Made by a program: the position numbers and the translations under genes. The notes beneath the pieces are model-generated. The model saw only the letters and a program-made list of their open reading frames with translations. It ran no database searches and had not been told where the DNA came from. Of a stretch of 64,000 nucleotides of DNA, positions 18,801 to 64,000 are shown one piece after another. The stretch covers positions 41,122 through 105,121 of the IMG/VR virus record IMGVR_UViG_3300042560_001826, one strand, 5' to 3'. The stretch's first letter is position 1, and every line of letters begins with the position of its first letter. Source of the stretch: a virus.

Positions 18801-19855
18801 TTTTTTGGAATGAAAATCCAGTTTCTTCTTACGCAGAAGGCTATAGCTACGCAGCAAAATCAATAGTTAATAGCTTAACCAAGCACGGCGTTGATGTCCA
18901 CAGATCAAAATCTTCTGGTAATGCAGATGTTAATGGTTTAGTCAATCTTGGTATTTCCTACATAGATAAAAGCGATTCTGGCGAGGCAATTAAAATAACT
19001 CATGCTCTGCCAGAACTATACTCAAGAGGCGCAAAGCATTCAATAGGGTTTTCCTACTGGGAGACTAATAAACTTCCGGGATCTTGGATTCCCGAAATGA
19101 ATCAAATGGATGAAATATGGACAGCATCCGAATGGGCTAGAAATGTTTTTATTGAATCAGGAGTCAAGATACCTGTGCACGGTTTCAAGCTTGGCATAGA
19201 TGATTCATTGTATTTCCCGCCGGACAAACCAAGAAAAGTGCAGGGGAATAAATTTAAATTTCTTAGCATAGGCTCCCCATCGACTCGTAAGAACTCTCAG
19301 ATGGCTGTAGATGCATTTTTAAAGCTGTTTAGCAACAATGACGAGCATGTGCTCATATTTAAATCAATGGGGCCTCCAGACGCGAGGATATCCAGAGGCA
19401 CTGGTCATCAGAAATCTCTCTATGATACTAAGAATATTAATGTTATAGATTATGAATTAAGCCATCAAGATTTAGCAAACTTGTACGATAGCGTTGATTG
19501 CGTTTTGTACCCAACAAGCGGAGAAGGGTGGGGGATTTTGCCAATGAAAGGAATTGCAAAAGGGATCCCAACAATCTGCACTAATGCAACAGCTTGTACA
19601 GAGTATGCCGAGTTATCAATACCATTAGACTATCAATGGGGGACAGATAATATGGGTGGCATATATAGTGGTTGCGGGACATGGGCAATACCAAATCTTG
19701 ATGATTTATGTGATAAAATGTTATATGTCGTTAATCACTATGATAAGGCTTCCGAGAAGACTTTTTCAGGTGCTCAATGGGTAAATGAAAATCTTACTTG
19801 GGATAAAGTAACGAAACCAATGGCGGATAGATTATGTCAGATATTGAACCAGTAG
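18797..19855 (+). CDS. GT-B (family 4-like) glycosyltransferase, paralog 2
   Basis: WETNKLP..W...DEIW, RKN, YPTSGEGWGILP..GIAKGIPTI. Confidence 0.85.
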   Translation: MIFWNENPVSSYAEGYSYAAKSIVNSLTKHGVDVHRSKSSGNADVNGLVNLGISYIDKSDSGEAIKITHALPELYSRGAKHSIGFSYWETNKLPGSWIPEMNQMDEIWTASEWARNVFIESGVKIPVHGFKLGIDDSLYFPPDKPRKVQGNKFKFLSIGSPSTRKNSQMAVDAFLKLFSNNDEHVLIFKSMGPPDARISRGTGHQKSLYDTKNINVIDYELSHQDLANLYDSVDCVLYPTSGEGWGILPMKGIAKGIPTICTNATACTEYAELSIPLDYQWGTDNMGGIYSGCGTWAIPNLDDLCDKMLYVVNHYDKASEKTFSGAQWVNENLTWDKVTKPMADRLCQILNQ

Positions 19856-20406
19856 TAGGAACCGAAATTGAGCCAGCATCCAGAACAATTTTGGATGATC
19901 TAGCAGACATAGAGCAGGCCGGTCTCCTGCATGTAAAGGGGTATTCTAATCACGAAATTAGCTCCTTGATGAGTGTCTCTGCGGATAAAGCAAAAGGCAT
20001 GATTACTGAATACAAGAAGATACTTAATCGTCAAGCTGAATCGGATCCGTATTTCTTAGAGAAAATCCAATTTAATACAATCAAGGCTCTGCAAGAATTT
20101 GATCAATTGAGCAAAGAAGCTTGGGAGACTATTAATATTGCTACAGATCACGGCATGGTCCCGGCAAGAATTCAAGCTATTAAATTAGCGGCAGAAGTTG
20201 CTACTAAGAAAGCGCAATTGCATAAGCTTATGGGTGGCAATCAAACAGACGGGCAATATATTGCTAGAATGCAGAAAGCAGAGAATGTTAATCAAATTCT
20301 TTCTAAAGTTTTAAGGGATGTTATTTCCAAGCATCCTCAGATTGCCGAAGAGGTCAGGAGAGAATTGGAAATTGCATTTGAAATCATGAATGATGGTGTT
20401 GAATAA
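19834..20406 (+). CDS. Putative terminase small subunit
   Basis: N-terminal HTH (GYSNHEISSLM), helical body, directly upstream of the large terminase. Confidence 0.55.
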   Translation: MSDIEPVVGTEIEPASRTILDDLADIEQAGLLHVKGYSNHEISSLMSVSADKAKGMITEYKKILNRQAESDPYFLEKIQFNTIKALQEFDQLSKEAWETINIATDHGMVPARIQAIKLAAEVATKKAQLHKLMGGNQTDGQYIARMQKAENVNQILSKVLRDVISKHPQIAEEVRRELEIAFEIMNDGVE

Positions 20407-20470
20407 AGAGACGGAAAAATTATCACATAAAGGTTTATGTAAAGAGACGGAAAAACTCTCACATAAAGGT
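20404..20470 (+). repeat. Two direct repeats TAAAGAGACGGAAAAA-(5 nt)-ACATAAAGGT, period 36 bp
   Basis: Copies at 20404-20434 and 20440-20470. Confidence 0.9.
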
Positions 20471-20609
20471 GTAAACTCACTTGTCTATGAGGTGATCCTG
20501 CTCTAAGCTTACAGCGGTGTAAGAATCCATATGTGTAAGATTACTCATTCGTAATCTTGTCGCCGCGTAAGTTTTCATATTTCATAGTGTATACTATTAA
20601 GGGTGGCAA

Positions 20610-22489: not shown

Positions 22490-22641
22490 ATTAATTTTTA
22501 AATTCTTAGCAAAAAAAAATAGTTTCTCGCACATAGCCTATTTCTCTGTGCTAGTGTTCCTTCTGCTGGCGATTCCTTATGTAATTCGCATAGAGAATCG
22601 CCAGCACCAAGTAAAAACCTACAAAGAATACGGAGAAAAAT

Positions 22642-22977
22642 ATGACACTCAAAATGAATAAAGTAGATAATTTCCCAGAAATCACTAGGGCTGGCAGACA
22701 GTCTGAAGATTTGCAGGCGATTATTAATGCTCTTCACGAATCGGTTAATACTGGACAAAAGTTTAGCCTTTTTGTTGAGCCTGGTAATCCATATAACTCA
22801 ATGCAACAGCGTATTCGTGCGCAGGCAAAGAAGTTTGGATATAAGATTATCATTCGTTATGACTCAGCCAAGAAGGAACTTTTCTTTAAGGCAAATCGTG
22901 GCGGTAATGCTTCGGTTTCTGCTAACGAAGTCGGCTCGGTTAAGAATAAGGCTACGACTACCGTAAAGTCCAAGTAA
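22642..22977 (+). CDS. Small basic protein, distant relative of island family A
   Basis: RAGRQS...G.KF...RIRAQAKKFGYKIIIRY aligns by eye with 46226-46510; own promoter, leader hairpin and terminator. Confidence 0.7.
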   Translation: MTLKMNKVDNFPEITRAGRQSEDLQAIINALHESVNTGQKFSLFVEPGNPYNSMQQRIRAQAKKFGYKIIIRYDSAKKELFFKANRGGNASVSANEVGSVKNKATTTVKSK

Positions 22978-23009
22978 TAAATCAATAAAAAAATAAAAAA
23001 GTTTTTTTG

Positions 23010-23037
23010 AGTGGGGCGAAAGCCCCACTTTTTTTTT
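23010..23037 (+). terminator. Rho-independent terminator
   Basis: AGTGGGGC-GAAA-GCCCCACT followed by a T-tract. Confidence 0.9.
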
Positions 23038-23864: not shown

Positions 23865-24281
23865 ATTAGGTTTTTTATAAAGCCCCTGTAGTGCTTTATA
23901 AAATATACTAAAATTTGCTAAAAAATTGGCTAAACGCCAGCGGTAACATTACATGGTCGTAATATTACTTGAGACCTTCGTTGTTTTTAGCTAATTCATT
24001 ATATCGACTGGATCGACAAGCCGATCGTCAATTTTTAGCTAATCCTGGCGGTTATGCCTGGATCTTAACTAATAGATAAATTGACCCATTGTTCGCACCT
24101 ATTGCCGGATCCAAAAGAAATCTCAGAAATCTATATTTTGAGGTTTTTTCTTACCGATTCCCCTGATAGTGTGGTGGCACAAATGACGACACATTATCTT
24201 ACCAATAGATTGCCTATTGTGTACGGTATTGTGTCGTTATTTGTGTTGTATAAAAAATCAGATACGGGAAAGGATTAGGCT

Positions 24282-31869: not shown

Positions 31870-31892
31870 ATAACAACACAAAAGGGGTGATT

Positions 31893-33512
31893 ATGAAATA
31901 CATTAAGATATCCAACACAGCAATAGGTGGAGTCAATAGGCTTCGTTTAGAAAAGCTGGGGCTTTCAACAAAAAGAAATGATCCTGATACGATTGGTCAA
32001 TTTGGTTCTGGTATCAAATATGCTCCAATTTCAGCAATTAGAATGGGTCTTGATTTTGTATTCGTTGGCTCTGATGATAAGGGTGAATATCAGCTTCGCT
32101 ACAAAGTAGTAGATGAAGAAGGTATCAACTCAATTGTTTATGATTATGGTGACTATCAAAAGCCATCTTCATTTACAGTTGATGCTGGCTCTTTGAGTTG
32201 GGATAGTGAATGGCAAATCTACCGGGAAATAGTTTCTAATGCTATGGATGAAGGTGATTGGACAAGAGAAATTGTTGATAATGTTGAAAACGATAAAAAC
32301 TCGTTTGCAATTTATATCTCGGCATCTCCAAAAATGATAGATGTTTATAATGACCATGATAAATACTTCTGTACGAATAGAGAAGTTTTTTATTATTGTG
32401 ATAGAACAGATGTCAAGTTCTTACAAAAGCATGATAGTTCAGAAAGGCTTTATAACAAAGGTGTTCTTTGCCATACAGAAGAGATACAGTTTCCTTCTTT
32501 GTTTGATTATAACTTTCTAAATGGTGATCTAAACGAAGACAGGTCTTTCAAATATGTTTCTACTGAGCGCCTTAAAATTGCTAAAGCAATTGCCTGGACT
32601 AAGAATAAAGAGCTAATTAAGGAAATACTAGAAGAAGCTTTTGAGACAGACATCTGGGAATTTAATTTCATTAGTGATCTACATTGGAATTATGTCACCC
32701 CATCTAGTAGTTGGAAATTACAGTTTCACAAGATGTATGGAGAAAATGCGATAATTGTTTCTCCAGAGCAATCGCTAATTCAAGGCCTCTCATCTTTGAT
32801 TAAAGCAAAAGGTATGAAAGCTAAGTATTGTACTTCTAATGCAATGTTTAGTTTTCTTAAAGAGTGTGAGATTGCCACTTGTGAAGATTTGATTGACGAG
32901 AAATACGAATACATTACTGATGATGATCTAACAAAATACCCAAAGCTTATTGAGGCAATAAAAATCGCCTCTCACTTTGAGCCAGGATTATTGAATATGC
33001 CAAAACCAGTAATTGTATTTGATACACAAGAAGATGAAGTTATGCTTGGTCTTACTGTCAATGTTTCTAAAGAAATTCAACAGAGGCAAATAATGATTGC
33101 TAAACATCACGCAGAAGGTTCTAGTGTGCGTGAATTAGTCGGAACAATAATTCATGAATATGACCATTATTCAAGTGGTCTGGGTGATAGTATGTACCGT
33201 GAATTCCGTTCACTTGCTGATAGTAGAATTTCTAAGCTAATGCTTTCTATGTATAAAGAGACACCTGCTTACATCCATAATGGTATAATTAAAATTAAAT
33301 TAAAAGATTTGCCTATGTTTTCATCTGTGGATTTCATCATTCAGCCAGTTGAAAAAACAAGTTGGCATTTGGCTCGCATTGGAAAGTTGACCTTTAAACT
33401 TAACATTGGAGACGAAAAAATCTCACTAAGTGGTGTAGCAATGCCAGACAAAACTGGTGAGGAATTAGAAATCAATATTGGTCATAACGGCACAATTAGT
33501 AGATTGGATTAA
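31893..33512 (+). CDS. GHKL-type ATPase-like domain (permuted motif order) fused to an HExxH domain
   Basis: IGQFGSGIK precedes REIVSNAMD; C-terminal IIHEYDH. Confidence 0.65.
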   Translation: MKYIKISNTAIGGVNRLRLEKLGLSTKRNDPDTIGQFGSGIKYAPISAIRMGLDFVFVGSDDKGEYQLRYKVVDEEGINSIVYDYGDYQKPSSFTVDAGSLSWDSEWQIYREIVSNAMDEGDWTREIVDNVENDKNSFAIYISASPKMIDVYNDHDKYFCTNREVFYYCDRTDVKFLQKHDSSERLYNKGVLCHTEEIQFPSLFDYNFLNGDLNEDRSFKYVSTERLKIAKAIAWTKNKELIKEILEEAFETDIWEFNFISDLHWNYVTPSSSWKLQFHKMYGENAIIVSPEQSLIQGLSSLIKAKGMKAKYCTSNAMFSFLKECEIATCEDLIDEKYEYITDDDLTKYPKLIEAIKIASHFEPGLLNMPKPVIVFDTQEDEVMLGLTVNVSKEIQQRQIMIAKHHAEGSSVRELVGTIIHEYDHYSSGLGDSMYREFRSLADSRISKLMLSMYKETPAYIHNGIIKIKLKDLPMFSSVDFIIQPVEKTSWHLARIGKLTFKLNIGDEKISLSGVAMPDKTGEELEINIGHNGTISRLD

Positions 33513-43521: not shown

Positions 43522-44465
43522 CCAAAGTGGCCAGAAAACGCACTACGGAAGCGTACAAGGCTTTTTAAGTGCCAATGTGGTCGGGAATTGATTAATATCT
43601 ATTTATAAGAACTGGAGAGAGATAAAGAATAAAAGCGGGTCTTAATTATCTTTCAGTATAGAGATAGAGAATCTATAGAGAGACTAGAGAATGAATAAGG
43701 CTGCGTCTACCTGAAATAAGTAGGATATGTCCCTTAGAAAATGTTGTGTTACGTCCCACAGTAAAGAGGCGAAAAGCGCGCAAATATTACGGTATTTTTA
43801 TTAAATACTATGGTGTTTTATAAAATATAGGGCAAAAAGCCCTTAAAATGCATGAAAAAGCTTCACTTTTGCACAAGCTGGTATAAATATGTATGTATCT
43901 ATCTCTCTATAGGTATAAAGAGACATTTAAACCCCGCCATAAAGGTATCCAGGAGATAAAAGAATGGGTAATAGATAAATTCATTATAAATTAGTTCACT
44001 AATGAACTTATAGAACTTATCATTAAACTTCTCATAGAACTGATCATTGAATTCAGGCGGGAATAAGCCTACTGATTACAGCACTGTAATTTGTAAGGAG
44101 CTAGACTAACCTTTGCCCCGGCAAAAAGAGACGGTAATGGATCCGTCATAAAGGTATTACTTTTTGTAAATCATTACATAATAAAAAAGGTGATTTTTTT
44201 TATGTACTCTAAGTAATATTACGATGGTAATGTTACCAACCGTAATATTACACCTGGCAGATCACCTGACTTCGTTAGGGAATGGATCGACAAAAGGCTA
44301 AAACAAATCCTGGGCGATAAGATCGTCAAATATATCTTTTTTATATTTCTTTCAGGTAAGGTTGGTTTTTTTTAGATCAGCCGATAGCGTGAGTGTATCG
44401 GTTGCGAAACTGATGAAATAAATAAAAAAATAAAAAAATCAACAAAAAAGGAAAAAGGTAAAACA

Positions 44466-44786
44466 ATGGCTACGGAAAAGAATGACGATTTTGAAATCGT
44501 CAATGAAGCGGATTTGGAATTCGCTTCTCGTGGAAGAAAATCAAACATTAGCGATAGCGAAATCGCTAAGGTAAAAGAAACATTGAAGAAAAATCCAAAT
44601 GGTTGGGTTTTGTTCAATGGTAAGGCTATTCCTAATGGAATGACTAACGCTAAGGATATTCGTAACCATAAGGCTGCGAATTCCGCAACGCTTAGGGCAT
44701 TGGCTAAGAAATTGGGAATGAAAGCAGAAATTCGTTGGCATAAGGGAACTGTTCCAGCAGTTCGCTTTTCTAAGGTTTCTGCTTAG
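44466..44786 (+). CDS. Island family A small basic protein (A1), putative DNA-binding
   Basis: FEIVNEADLEFASRGRKS...LRALAKKLGMKAEIRW. Confidence 0.8.
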   Translation: MATEKNDDFEIVNEADLEFASRGRKSNISDSEIAKVKETLKKNPNGWVLFNGKAIPNGMTNAKDIRNHKAANSATLRALAKKLGMKAEIRWHKGTVPAVRFSKVSA

Positions 44787-44817
44787 TAATTAGACAATAG
44801 TTTTCGCAACTGTTAGG

Positions 44818-44853
44818 GAATGGGTGGGGTAAAACCCACCCATTCTTTTTTTT
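44818..44853 (+). terminator. Rho-independent terminator
   Basis: GAATGGGTGGG/CCCACCCATTC stem plus T8. Confidence 0.9.
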
Positions 44854-45314
44854 ATTTGTGTCGATCCCGGAATAAAGATAAAGAATTACGTTACCGTAAT
44901 CTTACAGATCCGCATTAGTGATTACATAAAGGATCTTCCAGGGATAAAGAAATAGATTAGAAAAATGCTTACTAAATTATTTAGGTACGGTGTAATATTA
45001 CCACGGTCGTAATGTTACAAAATTCTAACATTACACCCGCCCCGTAATATTACTTACTAAGTAAGATTACATAAAGGCTTACATAAAGGTAATATTTTAT
45101 ATAAAAGAAATGCTTACTCAAATGCTAAAAGAAGTCATGTAATGTTACCAGCCGTAATATTACCGAACTCCGGTCGAAAAAAAAACCTGGGCTTACGGCT
45201 GTGTAAGCTTTGACTTGGTGAGAGCCAAACTTACACAGCCGTAAGACACCTTCTGTTGCCCCGCCTAGTTAGGGCGGCGATGGTCAATAATCCATCGGGG
45301 ACGATTCACCTAAG

Positions 45315-45617
45315 TTACTTAGACGTAACGAGACGAACGGTAGGAACACCGTCGGTGGTGAAGGCAATGCGCACCTTCACGCCGACAGACTTCGCGCATG
45401 CCCTGAGCATCGCGCTCACGGCAGCCTTGCGAGTCTTCGCGTTCGTACCCTTCGGGTCAACCTTGTACGAAGGCAGAGCCAAAACTTTCCCAGCGGGAAG
45501 TTTAGCGATAGCCTGCGCAAGCTTCGGGTCGGCGTTTGACTTGCGTCCACGCTTAGCGAAACTAAGGTCGCTCTCGTTCACGATCTCGAACTCGGGTGTA
45601 TCGTTGGTCTTAGCCAA
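45315..45617 (-). CDS. Island family A small basic protein (A2)
   Basis: TTG start after AAAGGAG; FEIVNESDLSFAKRGRKS...LRACAKSVGVKVRIAF. Confidence 0.8.
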   Translation of the reverse strand: MAKTNDTPEFEIVNESDLSFAKRGRKSNADPKLAQAIAKLPAGKVLALPSYKVDPKGTNAKTRKAAVSAMLRACAKSVGVKVRIAFTTDGVPTVRLVTSK

Positions 45618-46154
45618 ACGTTACTCCTTTGTAAGAAAAGGTTACGGGTATGGATTAGACAGTAGTACCACTACTGCCCGACGCTGTAAGTTTTGATCTA
45701 GTGTGTTCGTTACCTTACACACGGGTAGGATTCGCTGACTGCCTACCTTCCCAAACTTACCGCCGTGTAACGGTAGTGCGACACCTGAACCTAGCCGAAG
45801 TGATCCCGAAGGATCACCGTTGCTCGCCCCGTAATTTTACGGGACCGCCTACTAGGTGACTCAGGTACGGGTCAACGCACCGATAAGGATTCTAACAGAT
45901 GATCGGCAAAAGCGGGCGGATAGTAAAACGGCTCAAATAAAAGACTACTGAATAGGTCGATAATAGGGTAAAGATAAAGTCCGGCGGCCCTGTAATCTTA
46001 CAATTAGACTTTGATAAAGTTCCAGGACCGTAATCTTACATTGGAAAAATGTATTAAACTAATCTTACATAAGTGTAATGTTACTGCGGGCGTAATCTTA
46101 CGGTGAGTAAGGTTAACGCCCGCGTAATCTTACGCTAGTAATATTACATAGAGA

Positions 46155-46206
46155 AAATAAAAAAAATAAGTCGATAGCGCCGGGGCTCTTGCGAACCCCG
46201 ACGCTA
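46155..46206 (-). terminator. Rho-independent terminator for A3
   Basis: TAGCG.CGGGG stem (46175-46206) followed by a T-tract on the minus strand. Confidence 0.75.
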
Positions 46207-46225
46207 CCTACTTGGCTTGGGGGAG

Positions 46226-46510
46226 TTAGTCTGCCAAGATGACTTGTGGCGTACCGTTGGCACTCCAACGGATCGCAACCTTCTTGCCTGCCTGCTTGCC
46301 TGCCTGACGGATTTGGGCAGATACCTTAGCCTTCTCCGTCTTAGCCTTCGGACTGTTGGGGTTCACGGTCATTCCCGTGAGTTTCAGTCCTTGACCCTTC
46401 TTGAGCTTGGAAATTGCGCCTACGAGGGCAGGGCTCACGGTGGACTTACGCCCACGCTTGGAAAATTCCAAGTCCTGCTCGGAGACAATCTCAAAATTGT
46501 CTGTTGCCAT
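46226..46510 (-). CDS. Island family A small basic protein (A3)
   Basis: FEIVSEQDLEFSKRGRKS...IRQAGKQAGKKVAIRW. Confidence 0.8.
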   Translation of the reverse strand: MATDNFEIVSEQDLEFSKRGRKSTVSPALVGAISKLKKGQGLKLTGMTVNPNSPKAKTEKAKVSAQIRQAGKQAGKKVAIRWSANGTPQVILAD

Positions 46511-46700
46511 TGTTGTGGTATTCCCTTCTGAGCCTTACTTAGATTTGGGGCTCCGTTGTTGTTTAGAACACTATCCAATAGGGGAAAACGACGCAAGTAT
46601 GCGAACAGTCAAAAAACGCTGTATTTATTGGGGTTTTTGAGTGTGTGTCGTGAGTCACACGGTAGAAAAATGGAGATTTCCATAAATTACACGACCCTAC

Positions 46701-46714
46701 CGAACAAGTGTTTG
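46701..46714. promoter_or_regulatory. LexA-type box CGAAC-AAGT-GTTTG
   Basis: One mismatch to consensus; intergenic, upstream of A3. Confidence 0.5.
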
Positions 46715-46923
46715 GTGAGGTATTGTGAGATTAGATCCCATAAACTTTCTTGTGTGTAAAATTACATTTACGAAAGAGTACTAAATTTTTATTACATGTC
46801 AGTAATGTTACAGAGGGTGTAAGTTTTAGTCCCCCCAAAACTTACACCCTTCGTAATATTACCTAGATGAGCTATAAAATTACACGGGCCGGTAAGCCCG
46901 TGTAACTTTACTGCCGTGTAATA

Positions 46924-47280
46924 CTAGGCTGTTGCCAAAACGCTAATGGCTTGGCGTATCGGATACCCATTCTGGATAAATTGGTGGCGTATATCAACAG
47001 GCACCTGTGTAAGTTTACGCATCGCCTCATCTTGGGCATTTACGAGGGTAAGCATTTCCGCCAAATATTCCATAGCGGTATGATTAGAAACTAACGGTAA
47101 ACCGTGTTCGGTCATTTCCGCGAGCTTATCTAACGCGCCTGTAATTTTATCGGAGAGGTCATCACCGATTTCCTCGCGCCCGATTTCCAGAATGATACCG
47201 AGGTCGTGGAATATTAGGGATCGTGTTCTCGTAGCTTTACTAGTGAGAATTACGCCTTCCGCAAATCGTTCTTCGTTCAT
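46924..47280 (-). CDS. Hypothetical protein (island cassette)
   Basis: ATG 47280 after GGAGG; TAATG-coupled to the upstream peptide. Confidence 0.65.
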   Translation of the reverse strand: MNEERFAEGVILTSKATRTRSLIFHDLGIILEIGREEIGDDLSDKITGALDKLAEMTEHGLPLVSNHTAMEYLAEMLTLVNAQDEAMRKLTQVPVDIRHQFIQNGYPIRQAISVLATA

Positions 47281-47399
47281 TATTTTTTCCTCCATAGTTC
47301 TTCGTAAAACGCTCGCCTCTTTTGTTGCCAGCGTGTAATTTTTGGGTGGATAATAAATGCTATTATTACTGACAGTAGGAATATCTTGATATTGGTCAT
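47280..47399 (-). CDS. 39 aa membrane peptide (not in the ORF track)
   Basis: MTNIKIFLLSVIIAFIIHPKITRWQQKRRAFYEELWRKK. Confidence 0.5.
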   Translation of the reverse strand: MTNIKIFLLSVIIAFIIHPKITRWQQKRRAFYEELWRKK

Positions 47400-47596
47400 A
47401 CTTCCATTTTACAAAACTTACACAACCAATACAAGGATCACATTTTCCATAAAGGGTAAGGCCTAGTAATCTTACACACTAAAAGAATGAGGCTTAGTAA
47501 TATTACACCTGCCATACCGGTGCTCCATAAAGATCTAATTATGTAATATTACTGAGCTGTAATAATTGTTGCTAATGGTAAGATTACGCGATCACG

Positions 47597-47610
47597 CGAA
47601 CAAATGTTTG
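47597..47610. promoter_or_regulatory. LexA-type box CGAAC-AAAT-GTTTG
   Basis: Upstream of the B1 promoter. Confidence 0.5.
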
Positions 47611-47701
47611 GTCGGCCGGTGATCGTCGATCGTGCCTATTGTTGCGATCGTGTATGCTTACTATGTCGGCAATTCCGCCGACACTCACGAAAGGCAAGGC
47701 A

Positions 47702-48118
47702 ATGAAGGCAAAGGCAAAAGCGTTCGCAAAGGCGATGAGTGTTCTCATCGGTAATGCGAACAAGGTACGCGCCAAAAAAGGCGTGAAGCGTATCTACGAC
47801 AGCGCGGTACTCAATACCGCTATTGGTACGGCACTACAAAAAGGCGTTTTGCCAAAAGGCGAGAACGCTCGCCTATGGTGCTTCGCAAATGATGCCGTTG
47901 TTGTAGATGTTCGGACTATCGTTCACGAAAACATCGGTGATGAAGCATCGCACGAACGACCCGAAAATACTGTTCGTGCGAGACTCATCACGCTTGCGAA
48001 ACTAAACAAAGACATCACGAAGCTTGCCTATGTTCGTTATCTCACGAACGGTACGCCTAGTGCCGATGATGCGAACAACGACGACGCTTACAAAGTTTTC
48101 ATTTTCCGTAAGCGTTAG
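47702..48118 (+). CDS. Island family B basic protein (B1)
   Basis: RBS GAAAGG; KKGVKRIYD...VDVR..V...RPENTVRARLITL...KVFIFRK. Confidence 0.78.
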   Translation: MKAKAKAFAKAMSVLIGNANKVRAKKGVKRIYDSAVLNTAIGTALQKGVLPKGENARLWCFANDAVVVDVRTIVHENIGDEASHERPENTVRARLITLAKLNKDITKLAYVRYLTNGTPSADDANNDDAYKVFIFRKR

Positions 48119-48130
48119 AAACAAAAAGAG

Positions 48131-48163
48131 TGACGGGGCGGAAACGCCCCGTCATTTTTTTTT
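48131..48163 (+). terminator. Rho-independent terminator
   Basis: TGACGGGGCG-GAAA-CGCCCCGTCA plus T-tract. Confidence 0.9.
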
Positions 48164-48275
48164 GTATCCGTTTAGTCGAGTAGCCCGGACTAATTAGATT
48201 TCGTTCCATAAAAGGTACACGCTTGTAAGATTACAAAATCGTACTGAATTTTTATGCATAATGCTGCATGATTAT

Positions 48276-48355
48276 GCGGGTGCGTCTCTACGCAAAGCTG
48301 TGAGCTCCACCCGCGTAATCTTACACCGTAAAGGGTTAGCTTTGTAATGTTACAC
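48276..48355. repeat. ~80 bp structured repeat, copy 1 (copy 2 at 49578-49660)
   Basis: GCGGGTG...CACCCGC branched stem, GTAANNTTAC, CCGTAAAGGGTTAG, GTAANNTTACAC. Confidence 0.85.
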
Positions 48356-48434
48356 AGCATGACTTGCATCGACTAATAGATCGTGTAGACTATTGGTATC
48401 GGCAATCCTGCCGATCATCACGAAAGGTTACACA

Positions 48435-48641
48435 ATGTCCACATTTGAAACACACGACGAGATAATCCAGAAGGTTCGTACCTTCTATCGGGAGACCTAC
48501 AACATGTCCGAATCAGCCCTGCCATGCCATAACTGCATGTTTGAGCAAGAGCCAGACACCGAATGTGGCTATGTCTGGATAACCTGCGAAGCCGACAACA
48601 TGAATAATGATTCAGACGGTTGCAATTGGGGTAATGTTTAG
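48435..48641 (+). CDS. Small acidic Cys-containing protein (island cassette)
   Basis: RBS GAAAGG; CHNC...C...C...C; promoter TTGCAT-16-TAGACT. Confidence 0.65.
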   Translation: MSTFETHDEIIQKVRTFYRETYNMSESALPCHNCMFEQEPDTECGYVWITCEADNMNNDSDGCNWGNV

Positions 48642-48657
48642 TTACAACTAAGTAAGT

Positions 48658-48695
48658 AAAGCCCGGTCCTAACCCCCTGGGGCCGGGCTTTATTT
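48658..48695 (+). terminator. Rho-independent terminator
   Basis: AAAGCCCGGTCC/GGGCCGGGCTTT stem plus T-rich tail. Confidence 0.75.
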
Positions 48696-48836
48696 ATTAT
48701 TACCTTATAGTAATCTTACCTATAATGATCTCCATAAAGATAATGAATACTAAACTTACTTATTAGTAATGTTACACGCCAACCGTAACATTACCGGGCT
48801 ATCGGTTGCCCCGGTCGATCAAGGGTAGAAAGAGAA

Positions 48837-48872
48837 AGAACCCCACCTACCCTTTCGGGTAAGTGGGGTTCT
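48837..48872 (-). terminator. Terminator hairpin for B2
   Basis: AGAACCCCAC.TACC/GGTA.GTGGGGTTCT stem with a pyrimidine tail on the minus strand. Confidence 0.75.
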
Positions 48873-48885
48873 TGTGTTCTGTTCG

Positions 48886-49404
48886 CTACTTCGTGCGAAC
48901 GATAAACACTTTCTCGCACTCATTAGTCACGCCGTTCTCAAGCCATGACTCTTGAGCCATTCGTGCATCAACGGCCCAGATAACGGTGAGATCGCCCAGA
49001 ATGAGCTTACTCTTCTGCCAACTGATGAGCCTTGCACGAACGGCATTGTCGGCACGGTAGTTCGTAGCCTTACTGCACACTTCGCTACGAAGAACGAACG
49101 GCACTTCGTTCTGGAGACAGAACTTCAGAAGTTGTGCTTTGCTCTTCTTGACGGGTTCGCCGTTCGCATCAACAGTCCATGTCTCAAGAACGGGTTTCGT
49201 TGATGCAATAGAAACTGCTCGCATCAGAAGTTCAGCACCGTCATTCGTTGAGAATGGCTTTACTCTCTTCTTCTTATTCTTCTCATTGCAAGAAGAAAGT
49301 TTCTCAACGGACTTCTGAAAGAGTCCCGACGCTTTCGCGCCGAAAGACTGAACTTCTTTCTTTCTACCTTTCGCTACTTTCGTAGCCTTTCTCTTCTTCG
49401 CCAT
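48886..49404 (-). CDS. Island family B basic protein (B2)
   Basis: KKRVKPF...GAELL...RADNAVRARLISW...KVFIVRTK. Confidence 0.78.
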   Translation of the reverse strand: MAKKRKATKVAKGRKKEVQSFGAKASGLFQKSVEKLSSCNEKNKKKRVKPFSTNDGAELLMRAVSIASTKPVLETWTVDANGEPVKKSKAQLLKFCLQNEVPFVLRSEVCSKATNYRADNAVRARLISWQKSKLILGDLTVIWAVDARMAQESWLENGVTNECEKVFIVRTK

Positions 49405-49577
49405 TGTGCTCTTACCTTTCGTGATAGTGGGCCGAATTGCCCACTAGTAGAAGTGTAACAGAACTAGGTGAGATTACAACGATCCAATTTCTGCATTACA
49501 ATTCACACTCATGCATGATCATGCATAAATGATTAGGAAATCACACTAAATTGTAATCTTACATGCATAATTATTCA

Positions 49578-49660
49578 GCGGGTGCGTCAGAAACGCGAAG
49601 CTGTCTGCTCCACCCGCCGTAACATTACGCCGTAAAGGGTTAGATCTAGTAACATTACAC
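49578..49660. repeat. ~80 bp structured repeat, copy 2
   Basis: Stems identical to 48276-48355; loops differ. Confidence 0.85.
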
Positions 49661-49714
49661 GGAAGTAAGGTAATAAAAACCCCGCCCGGTTTTTAATCGA
49701 GCGGGGTTCTTTTA

Positions 49715-49816
49715 TTACTTGCGATTGCGGAAGTAAGCTAAAACGCTTACGCTGAACACAACAGCAAGAATGAGCGAGTAAGAAACATACTCACTAATGT
49801 TGAGGGTAAGTTGCAT
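49715..49816 (-). CDS. 33 aa membrane peptide (not in the ORF track)
   Basis: RBS GAAAGGAG; MQLTLNISEYVSYSLILAVVFSVSVLAYFRNRK; terminator hairpin at 49678-49708. Confidence 0.6.
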   Translation of the reverse strand: MQLTLNISEYVSYSLILAVVFSVSVLAYFRNRK

Positions 49817-50043
49817 TGTGATCTCCTTTCTTACTATCCAGCCTACAAACATTACACAGATAATACAAGCACCTATTACCTCATAAAGTGTAAGGTATCG
49901 TAATATTACTCATTAAAAATGAGACACTCATAGACTCTAATAGCGTTGGTGGCGTAATGTTACACACACTAAAAATGAGAGAGGGATCTGTGTAAGGTTA
50001 CTTGGTGTGTGCCCCGGTCGATCGGGCCGGGGGTACATAGCAG

Positions 50044-58478: not shown

Positions 58479-58694
58479 GGTGACCTCCAGCTGTGAGCAT
58501 AGCAGAAATTTTTCAAATTTCGCACACGGAAGCAAAAAATCTGGTATGCTTCGCATGCCCGCATGCGAGCAAGCTATTACTCTAATATACTCTAGTATAA
58601 CTAGTATACCTACATATACTTAGCATGCTTAGTATGCTAGAGAAATTTTTTAAGTTTTCTACCAAAATAAAAAAAATGGTGGTAATGTATGTGT

Positions 58695-62379: not shown

Positions 62380-63984
62380 ATGAACAAGAAAATGACTCAT
62401 GTAGAAGACGATATTGCTTCTCAAGAAATTGATGATATTGAATATCTTGCTTTAGAATCTAAAACAGTTATTGATGATCCTTTTGCAAAAATTGCATACT
62501 CTACTCTTTCTCCAAAGATGAAAAGAAGAGCCGCAAAACTTTCAAAGAAGTTTGAAGGGGTAGACGGAACATCTACAAAATATATTGATCCGGAAACTCT
62601 TGATGGATATTCTTTATACGATATCGTCAATCCGCCATATGATCTAGATACATTGGCCGGTCTATTTGACTCTAGCTCTATTCACAATGCATCTGTCATG
62701 GCAAGAGTAATGAACACGGTTGGTGTTGGTTTTGAATTTGAAGAGACTACAAAAGCAAAAAGAAAAATTGAAAAATCAATGGGTGACCCAGAAAAGGTCT
62801 CTCGTGTTAGAAAATCCCTTCAAGATGAAAAAGCTAGACTTGACGAAATTTTTGAAAATGTCAATGTTGAGGAAACATTTATTGAAACAATGATTAAGGT
62901 TTGGCAAGATGTTTTAACTGTTGGAAATGGCTATCTTGAGATTGGAAGAAATAATTCTGGTCAAATTGGATATATTGGTCATATTCCCGGAACCTTAGTT
63001 CGTGTAAGGAGAAAGAGAGATGGCTTTGTCCAAATCGCAAGAAGCAATAAAATTTCAGCAGTCTTCTTTAGAAACTATGGAGATCAAGAAACAGAGGATC
63101 CAATTAATAACGATCCAAGACCTAATGAGGTTATTCATTTTAAAATCTACTCTCCTAAGAATACATATTATGGTATTCCTTCTTCAGTTTCAGCTGCTGC
63201 TGCAATTGTTGGTGATAAATTTGCAAAAGAATATAACATTGATTATTTTGAGAATAAAGCAATTCCTCGCTATGCTGTAATTGTTAAAGGTGCAAAACTT
63301 AGTAATCAGTCAAAGCAAGAATTAATTAATTATTTTAGAAAAGAAGTTAAAGGAAGAAATCATGGAACTCTTGTTATTCCTATCCCTGCCTCTATTGGAG
63401 CAGATAGTGATATTAGATTTGAAAAGCTTGAAGCCGGTGTTCAGGATGCATCATTTGATAAGTATCGTAAAGCAAACAGGGATGAAATCCTTGTAGCCAA
63501 TAGAGTGCCAGCACCAAAAGTTGGTGTCTATGACAATGCAAACCTTGCAGTGTCTAGGGATTCTGATAAGACATTTAAAATGCAGGTCGTTGGTCCAGAT
63601 CAATCAGTGATTGAAAAGAGAATTAATCGTGTTCTTGCTGAGTTTACAGATTTATTTATTATGAGATTTAAGAAGATTGACTTGATTGATGAAGATATTC
63701 AGTCTAGAATTAATGATAGATATTTGAGGACAGAAGTTATTGCCCCGAATGAAGTTCGGTCATCACTTGGCTTGCCTGAGAGGGCTGATGGTGATGAAGT
63801 TCTTCCGTTCCCAACAAAGATTAAAAAAGAATCTGGTGCGGGAGCCCCAGTTGGTAATTCAAACAATCAGGCCTCCCAGCCAAGAAATGCAAGGTCGGAT
63901 ACGCCAGAAGGCGCATCTGATCCAAGAGTATCTGGCGATCAAGCAGAGCGCGGAGAGAACCAAGATAATTCAGGAGGACAATAA
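62380..63984 (+). CDS. Portal protein
   Basis: GNGYLEI, EVIHF, YYGIP, YFENKAIP, VP...G, PNEVR..LGLP. Confidence 0.88.
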   Translation: MNKKMTHVEDDIASQEIDDIEYLALESKTVIDDPFAKIAYSTLSPKMKRRAAKLSKKFEGVDGTSTKYIDPETLDGYSLYDIVNPPYDLDTLAGLFDSSSIHNASVMARVMNTVGVGFEFEETTKAKRKIEKSMGDPEKVSRVRKSLQDEKARLDEIFENVNVEETFIETMIKVWQDVLTVGNGYLEIGRNNSGQIGYIGHIPGTLVRVRRKRDGFVQIARSNKISAVFFRNYGDQETEDPINNDPRPNEVIHFKIYSPKNTYYGIPSSVSAAAAIVGDKFAKEYNIDYFENKAIPRYAVIVKGAKLSNQSKQELINYFRKEVKGRNHGTLVIPIPASIGADSDIRFEKLEAGVQDASFDKYRKANRDEILVANRVPAPKVGVYDNANLAVSRDSDKTFKMQVVGPDQSVIEKRINRVLAEFTDLFIMRFKKIDLIDEDIQSRINDRYLRTEVIAPNEVRSSLGLPERADGDEVLPFPTKIKKESGAGAPVGNSNNQASQPRNARSDTPEGASDPRVSGDQAERGENQDNSGGQ

Positions 63985-64000
63985 TGGGTTACGAAATGGG

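Follow-up and report, generated by a model that had tools for sequence, protein, structure and literature searches.

A bipartite motif common to the terL leader and one flank of a remote gene island: a candidate packaging or terminus signal in an uncultured freshwater phage

A bipartite DNA motif, A(A/T)GAGAC-N13/14-CATAAAGGT, is present in four copies in the 105,121-bp genome of an uncultured freshwater phage, all of them on the + strand and against an expectation of 0. Two copies stand in tandem between the gene for a helix-turn-helix (HTH) protein and terL, and two lie at the left edge of a distant island of small genes. We are confident that these units constitute a functional protein-recognition site and are neither a chance occurrence nor an RNA structure; judged from sequence, the motif is most likely a docking site for a protein of DNA packaging or for a dedicated regulator. 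The reading that we prefer, with a probability of roughly 0.4, is that the sites are recognised by the small-terminase-like HTH protein and mark both the terL leader and the terminal region of the genome. The motif is then a concrete candidate for the packaging or terminus signal of a group of ~105-kb freshwater phages that are abundant in metagenomes and have no cultured member.

The bipartite units and their neighbours

The window analysed here covers the closing 64,000 nucleotides of a 105,121-bp IMG/VR contig, which encodes a DnaE-type polymerase, TerL, portal, ribonucleotide reductase (RNR), glycosyltransferases, five tRNAs and a 1,911-aa tape measure protein. Approximately 90 kb of the genome is a one-strand gene array, and the genes between terL and the island are mostly without family match. 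A 541-aa protein (31887-33512) likewise has no Pfam match, its nearest Atlas clusters carrying GHKL-type ATPase families (MPN635_N, HATPase_c_3). The IMG/VR record is listed as linear, and the contig ends share an 815-bp repeat with 799/815 positions identical (16 mismatches, 98%; window 63186-64000 versus genome 1-815). This repeat sits within the portal gene (62380-63984) and is therefore the wrap-around of a circular assembly of mixed strains and no physical end. Contigs of relatives close via overlaps of 123 bp and ~331 bp at differing map positions, and contig terminal repeats were rejected as real ends throughout. The features discussed below are as follows.

19834..20406, + strand: gene for a 190-aa HTH protein, a putative small terminase judging from its position and architecture, with no family match
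20405..20434, + strand: bipartite unit 1, AAAGAGAC-N13-CATAAAGGT (matrix score 34-38 bits)
20441..20470, + strand: bipartite unit 2, a tandem copy with 36-bp period (pattern and matrix scan)
20471..20576, unstranded: degenerate GTAANNTTAC-type array with sites at 20471, 20503, 20519, 20535, 20551 and 20567, perfect only at 20535
20588..20595, + strand: extended -10 promoter-like element TGTATACT, as read from the sequence, 14 nt before the terL start codon
20610..22340, + strand: terL, the large terminase subunit (phrog_17415, phrog_9; 42% identity to Coruscant TerL)
43917..43946, + strand: island-left bipartite site 1 (N13; pattern and matrix scan)
43996..44043, + strand: iteron-like 24-bp tandem repeat between sites 1 and 2; relatives carry other short tandem repeats in or beside this gap
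44125..44155, + strand: island-left bipartite site 2 (N14), with three GTAANNTTAC copies to its right at 44213-44251
44213..50001, unstranded: island of small stand-alone genes with 38 GTAANNTTAC and 7 further + strand CATAAAG copies, proposed as a terminal-repeat-like early region

The initial annotation had described a tandem pattern in the spacer before terL that recurs at the island edge, and all of its coordinates hold: AAAGAGAC-N13/14-CATAAAGG is found at 20405, 20441, 43917 (N13) and 44125 (N14), with a match in 0 of 100 shuffles. The genome-wide motif scan that it had proposed places the full motif at these two loci only. In a matrix scan of the genome the four bipartite sites scored 14-40 bits, the next matches were exclusively island half-sites, and no other intergenic region carried the motif, which makes it a two-locus element and rules out a general promoter class. 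The CATAAAG half-sites that had been listed for the island are likewise all present on the + strand (44925, 45070, 45082, 47448, 47526, 48733 and 49882), those at 47448 and 49882 each lying 16 nt upstream of a minus-strand -10-like hexamer.

The longer core CATAAAGG has 8 genome copies confined to the terL spacer and the island (43.9-47.5k). Its + to - strand counts are 8:0 here and 11:1, 8:0, 9:2 and 5:2 in relatives, co-oriented with terL. This bias ignores local gene direction, island genes being found on both strands, and suits a polar DNA process. The core of island-left site 2, CCCATAAAGGTATT, is kept in four relatives. The spacer of this site (44130-44147) contains a GACGG...CCGTC stem that was scanned as a minus-strand terminator-like hairpin; the other copies are without the stem.

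Neither RNA structure nor a consensus promoter accounts for the units. A hairpin reading (GAGAC...GTCTC) was rejected, as a stem forms in some units and 25 of 73 unique units form none. The fold of the whole spacer (z = -2.96) is caused by its decamer palindromes and was also set aside, with no Rfam family matched in the terL spacer. A consensus promoter scan placed no promoter on the bipartite units: CATAAAGGT is without a TAnnnT hexamer, and the host-type promoters of this genome have the form TG(n)TA..CT, to which the motif is dissimilar. A literature search for the motif string returned primer matches only.

Which protein might bind these sites? The gene directly upstream of terL encodes a 190-aa protein with an N-terminal HTH followed by long helices, an arrangement common to the Streptomyces phages Coruscant and LukeCage. 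Residues 15-58 show weak similarity to sigma-4/LuxR-type HTH domains, and profile searches of the PDB matched only LuxR/sigma-4 HTH at E ~0.1. The protein has a Coruscant homologue in gp191 (24% identity, E 5e-8), whose gene likewise stands immediately before terL and whose annotation reads 'putative RNA polymerase sigma factor'. The terS label given to the gene is putative, agreeing with its position and with the HTH/long-helix architecture but not backed by a family match: the protein has no Pfam family, its sole PHROG match is phrog_9507 (unknown function), and it matched no curated small-terminase family or solved structure. Identification by fold was abandoned, the AlphaFold2 model being all-helical and, at pLDDT 55, too poor for a fold search. 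When the HTH recognition helix was compared with the upstream half over 39 variants, near-identical helices were found with different halves (for example, the L025 versus the L032 type).

Conservation across relatives and a second, separable element

IMG/VR holds 249 relatives for TerL and 583 (uncharacterised) for the HTH protein. From the TerL relatives 80 loci were fetched, and the counts that follow are over 81 related terL loci. The half-site (C/T)ATAAAG lies within 260 bp upstream of terL in 74/81 loci, in 1-3 copies between the HTH gene and terL. Exactly two copies are present in 62/81 and the tandem is retained in 64/81, such that repeated co-oriented sites beside the terminase genes, as in pac and cosB regions, are a feature of nearly all 81 loci. 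An extra gene of 293-297 aa is inserted between the HTH gene and the tandem units in some relatives (loci L052, L053, L055, L058, where it lies ~1.0 kb before terL, L073 and L081), and the tandem units of these loci still adjoin terL.

Across the terL loci the unit has the consensus aaA(a/t)GAG.C..aaaaa..ctc.CATAAAGGTtta, in which the downstream half is invariant. The upstream half differs by clade (AAAGAGACGG, AATGAGACC, AATGAGTCC, CTTAGACTC or AAAATGTTTAT), two variants being mixed in some spacers. The most distant clade (77-78% TerL identity) has 3-4 terL units of TTTGAGAAC-N11-CCTTTATG, and the CCTTTATG-side half is the exact reverse complement of CATAAAGG. Sites homologous to island-left site 1 are found in the same place in five other genomes (G001 to G005). 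In five genomes the terL spacer and the island-left site carry the same upstream half, which differs from one genome to another.

This window (G000) and G005: upstream half at both loci AAAGAGAC
G003: upstream half at both loci ATGAGACC
G001: upstream half at both loci AAAATGT(T/A)T
G002: upstream half at both loci CTTAGAC

The island-edge downstream half in G003 and G002 is TATAAAGG. In the distant G004 the island-left site is TTGAGACC-N15-TATAGGGG and has only its upstream half in common with the terL units of that genome. Taken as sequence, the bipartite motif at terL is ancestral in these phages and recurs at the non-coding left edge of the island, with an upstream half that co-varies between the two loci.

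The spacer holds a second element, downstream of the tandem units. The initial annotation had reported GTAAGATTAC at 20535 followed by a near-copy, and the near-copy GTAATCTTGT was found at 20551. The decamer GTAANNTTAC has 43 genome copies, 38 of which lie within 44213-49992. A decamer matrix built from the island GTAANNTTAC sites was scanned over the spacer and the rest of the genome; three spacer sites (20471, 20503 and 20535) score at least 6 within 0.2 kb, compared with 0.345/kb outside the island. Together with 20567 (score 5.1) these sites are exactly 32 bp apart, and the weaker sites at 20519 and 20551 reduce the phasing to 16 bp. The TG(n)TA..CT form seen in TGTATACT also precedes island genes (47650, 48385) and occurs at 58540, and the terL extended -10 in close relatives is TGTATAAT.

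GTAANNTTAC before terL is confined to the clade with at least 90% TerL identity, which has up to 4 perfect copies at 16-bp spacing; 6 nt separate the last of them from the TGTATAAT or TGTATACT that follows. In the 82% clade the decamer is found in the islands and not before terL, while the terL spacer retains the bipartite units. One motif can thus occur without the other, and from their different clade distributions the two have different histories. The earlier claim that the spacer carries the signatures of the island consequently stands in that the link is real and conserved, but what it joins are two independent elements of different clade distribution. The spacer as a recent copy of an island cassette was rejected, as the matches are only decamer-sized. 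One island-type unit lies outside the island at 23865-23970, where a palindrome TTTATAAAGC...GCTTTATAAA is followed by TACTAAA and then GTAACATTAC-N6-GTAATATTAC; ~300 nt of non-coding DNA separate it from the next gene.

The island and the ends of cultured relatives

The left edge of the island is a ~1.2 kb A/T-rich non-coding stretch (43.25-44.47k) that includes both bipartite sites. Inside the island, the paralogues A1, A2 and A3 (44466-46510) have FEIV.E.DL.F..RGRKS in common and differ strongly in G+C and strand. The protein family is conserved with an invariant GR within the RGRKS-type motif, and the model of A1 (pLDDT 71) had no significant structural match. The product of a stand-alone gene at 22642-22977 aligns with family A (28% identity to A1); this gene (region 22490-23030) is preceded by a long hairpin of its own in the leader, GCTGGCGATTC...GAATCGCCAGC, and is followed by a strong terminator at 23009-23030. 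A module of ~110 nt is duplicated in the island (48250-48360 and 49500-49660) and consists of a GCGGGTG...CACCCGC hairpin, a decamer, CCGTAAAGGGTTAG and a second decamer; a small RNA and a regulatory module are both conceivable. In the island of G004 (L092 8800-10500) the minus-strand paralogues are G+C-rich and carry a KRGRDAF motif, the spacer repeats are entirely different, and GTAANNTTAC is absent.

The closest TerL (42%) and portal (45%) are those of Streptomyces BE-cluster phages (Stanwilliamsviridae). In Muntaha the order from the left end is a 540-bp leader, five small genes, a minus-strand block holding methylase, ThyX and tRNAs, then glycosyltransferase, RNR and portal. Coruscant and LukeCage have a ~0.9-kb leader and ~12 kb of small, individually spaced genes before the minus-strand block. 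The window has this same order as Coruscant, LukeCage and Muntaha: non-coding DNA at 43.25-44.47k, the island to ~51k, a minus-strand tRNA block at 51.1-58.3k, glycosyltransferase, RNR and portal. In the cultured phages the leader plus small-gene block is the direct terminal repeat, which spans 12,244 bp in Coruscant and 1,874 bp in Muntaha; the ends of Coruscant were mapped by read-start bias and a twofold coverage step (PMC7650747). The Coruscant repeat (L094 1-12244) contains ~15 copies of a G+C-rich palindrome, GGCGCCGGGCGCC, which parallels the GTAANNTTAC array here, and the terminal repeats of Coruscant and LukeCage (L221) are both palindrome-studded and encode Lsr2-like and ParB-N proteins.

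The proposal that the island is a packaging or terminal region gains comparative support from this gene order, and by synteny a physical end is presumed to lie within 43.25-44.47k, the region of sites 1 and 2. On the other side of the balance, the terL spacer of Coruscant and its ends have no word of 11 or more bases in common, and the bipartite motif is absent from the terL spacers of the cultured relatives (56-61 bp). Contig ends of relatives do not pile up at the terL spacer; at the island left edge the same search had little to work with, as the flanking protein is without relatives in the collection, A1 was found in one locus and the 14-mer gave mostly chance matches. The leaders of the cultured phages do contain C(A/G)TAAAG(G):

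Muntaha, + strand: 131 from the left end (CATAAAGG)
Coruscant, + strand: 254, 432, 711 and 768 from the left end (CGTAAAG)
LukeCage, + strand: 234 and 673 from the left end

These copies have the orientation seen here and lie at distances of 130-775 bp from the physical end, and the 11-mer CTTTCGTAAAG occurs in Coruscant in the leader only. In Coruscant and LukeCage there is no annotated gene downstream on that strand, so the leader copies cannot be gene promoters there. The resemblance was found post hoc, and because CGTAAAGG is frequent in coding DNA of the GC-richer cultured phages it is only suggestive across families.

Competing readings and known systems

On the preferred reading, the 36-bp tandem units would be a lineage-specific site whose upstream half is variable (A[A/T]GAGAC in most clades) and is followed after ~13 bp by the invariant CATAAAGGT. 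The binder would be the HTH protein encoded directly upstream, a putative small terminase, and the sites would mark the terL leader and the ~1.2-kb island left edge for the packaging machinery. By gene order that edge would correspond to the physical end and direct-terminal-repeat start of the cultured relatives. The island-left pair would then be a pac/cosB-like signal and the terL-proximal array a loading, nucleation or autoregulatory copy held beside the terminase genes. GTAAGATTAC, its 16-bp-phased degenerate neighbours and the extended -10 TGTATACT may form an island-type operator/promoter cassette that gives terL its own regulated host-type promoter, acquired in the closest clade only. 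The arguments for recognition by the terminase are the adjacency to terminase genes, the tandem arrays, the restriction to two loci, the syntenic second locus, a strand polarity independent of genes and the missing promoter features. Counting against it are the near-identical recognition helices paired with different upstream halves, the most distant clade, in which the terL and island-left sites agree in the upstream half only, and the terL spacers of the cultured relatives, from which the motif is missing.

It is possible, though rather unlikely, that the motif instead serves as a middle or late promoter that depends on a factor, or as an activator site with its start region, comparable to T4 MotA-box middle promoters or SPO1 gp28 promoters. 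A phage activator or sigma-like protein would read the variable half, the invariant CATAAAGGT would be the melting or start region, and the tandem copies would drive terL while the island-left pair drives rightward island transcripts. The layout agrees with this, the variable half lying ~20 bp centre to centre from a constant half that continues into GGT and A/T-rich sequence, as does the sigma-4-like HTH protein of the adjacent gene with its sigma-factor annotation in Coruscant. A transcription element is further argued for by the 82% clade, which has no other promoter-like element before terL and in which 46-58 nt (23 nt in L020) separate the last copy from the start codon, and by the island spacers, where seven additional half-sites are interspersed with promoter-like and operator elements, two of them placed 16 nt upstream of minus-strand -10-like hexamers. 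For these seven half-sites a transcription factor fits better than packaging. However, the full motif is missing from the other intergenic regions of the ~90-kb one-strand array and has no sigma-70-like -10 (TAnnnT). The search for a phage RNA polymerase or sigma factor found none: sigma-70 region 2 or 4 was not detected in the phage proteins, a PF00940 (RNA polymerase) search matched neither the phage nor its own controls, and ORFs of at least 450 aa are all otherwise assigned save one of 966 aa and unknown function in the structural gene region. The + strand copies in the island face the 3' ends of minus-strand genes, likewise in the Coruscant and LukeCage leaders, and a -10-type element would not tolerate the exact reverse complement that forms the downstream half in the most distant clade.

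Quite unlikely, in our judgement, is that both motifs are operators for small basic proteins of the island (families A and B) that time or repress terL and the island genes, the tandem units simply being a second operator type. The 16-bp-phased GTAANNTTAC arrays do abut the extended -10 before terL in the closest clade and fill every island spacer, a further GTAANNTTAC pair lies at 23943/23959 behind the TACTAAA element, and the island proteins are a conserved family with the invariant GR. Their DNA binding is only putative, however, with no significant structural match for A1, and the two elements do not travel together: the 82% clade keeps bipartite units without GTAANNTTAC before terL, and the most distant clade has island paralogues and no GTAANNTTAC. 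An HTH protein with a dual role, small terminase at the terminus and transcription factor at the terL leader and the -35-positioned island half-sites, is an improbable combination; it would couple packaging competence to terL expression and to shut-off of the terminal-repeat early genes, possibly by joining the two loci. Least probable is a role of the island-left sites in replication, as part of an origin that would combine iterons and A/T-rich DNA with a recognition site at its flank; the terL copies would then be a second origin or fossil duplication. Every genome examined has iteron-like short tandem repeats, of differing sequence, between the two island-left sites or next to them, within ~1.2 kb of A/T-rich non-coding DNA, but nothing ties the terS-terL spacer to replication, its tandem copies are strongly conserved in more than 70 loci, and no initiator gene was identified.

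The proposed recognition by the HTH protein in packaging has parallels among well-known phages. In the lambda cosB region (the R3-R2-R1 gpNu1 sites) and the SPP1 pacL/pacR boxes, as here, short repeated co-oriented sites lie beside the small-terminase gene and have a binder with an N-terminal HTH, which for the present phage is a proposal. Here, unlike in these systems, the candidate sites are between terL and the putative small-terminase gene, a second pair is 23.5 kb away at the presumed terminal region, and the units are bipartite with a lineage-variable half. In T4, pac-related sequences for gp16 are found in genes 16 and 19, and the two homologous small-terminase sites have been proposed to synapse. 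The likeness is in the two separated loci carrying the same, here putatively, terminase-related sequence. The T4 sites are inside coding DNA and ~3 kb apart, and T4 packages by headful; those described here are intergenic, tandem and tied to a terminal-repeat-like region. T4 MotA middle promoters (a MotA box at -30 with a sigma-70 -10) are similarly bipartite, with ~12-13 bp between the box and the A/T-rich element, but the downstream half here is not TAnnnT, there are only two loci and no MotA/AsiA-like genes were recognised.

To our knowledge, the packaging signals of the Streptomyces BE-cluster phages are not known. Their direct terminal repeats nevertheless offer the closest comparison, with homologous TerL, portal and HTH protein, the same gene order, a high-copy palindrome and C(A/G)TAAAG(G) copies in the leader. 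They differ in their 56-61-bp terL spacers without the motif and in their G+C-rich palindromes, and the terminal repeat of the freshwater phage is a candidate. Gene order thus ties the freshwater phages to BE-cluster phages with mapped long terminal repeats, and if the CATAAAGG/CGTAAAG core is a shared terminus signal, genome ends would become predictable in the metagenomic assemblies of the group.
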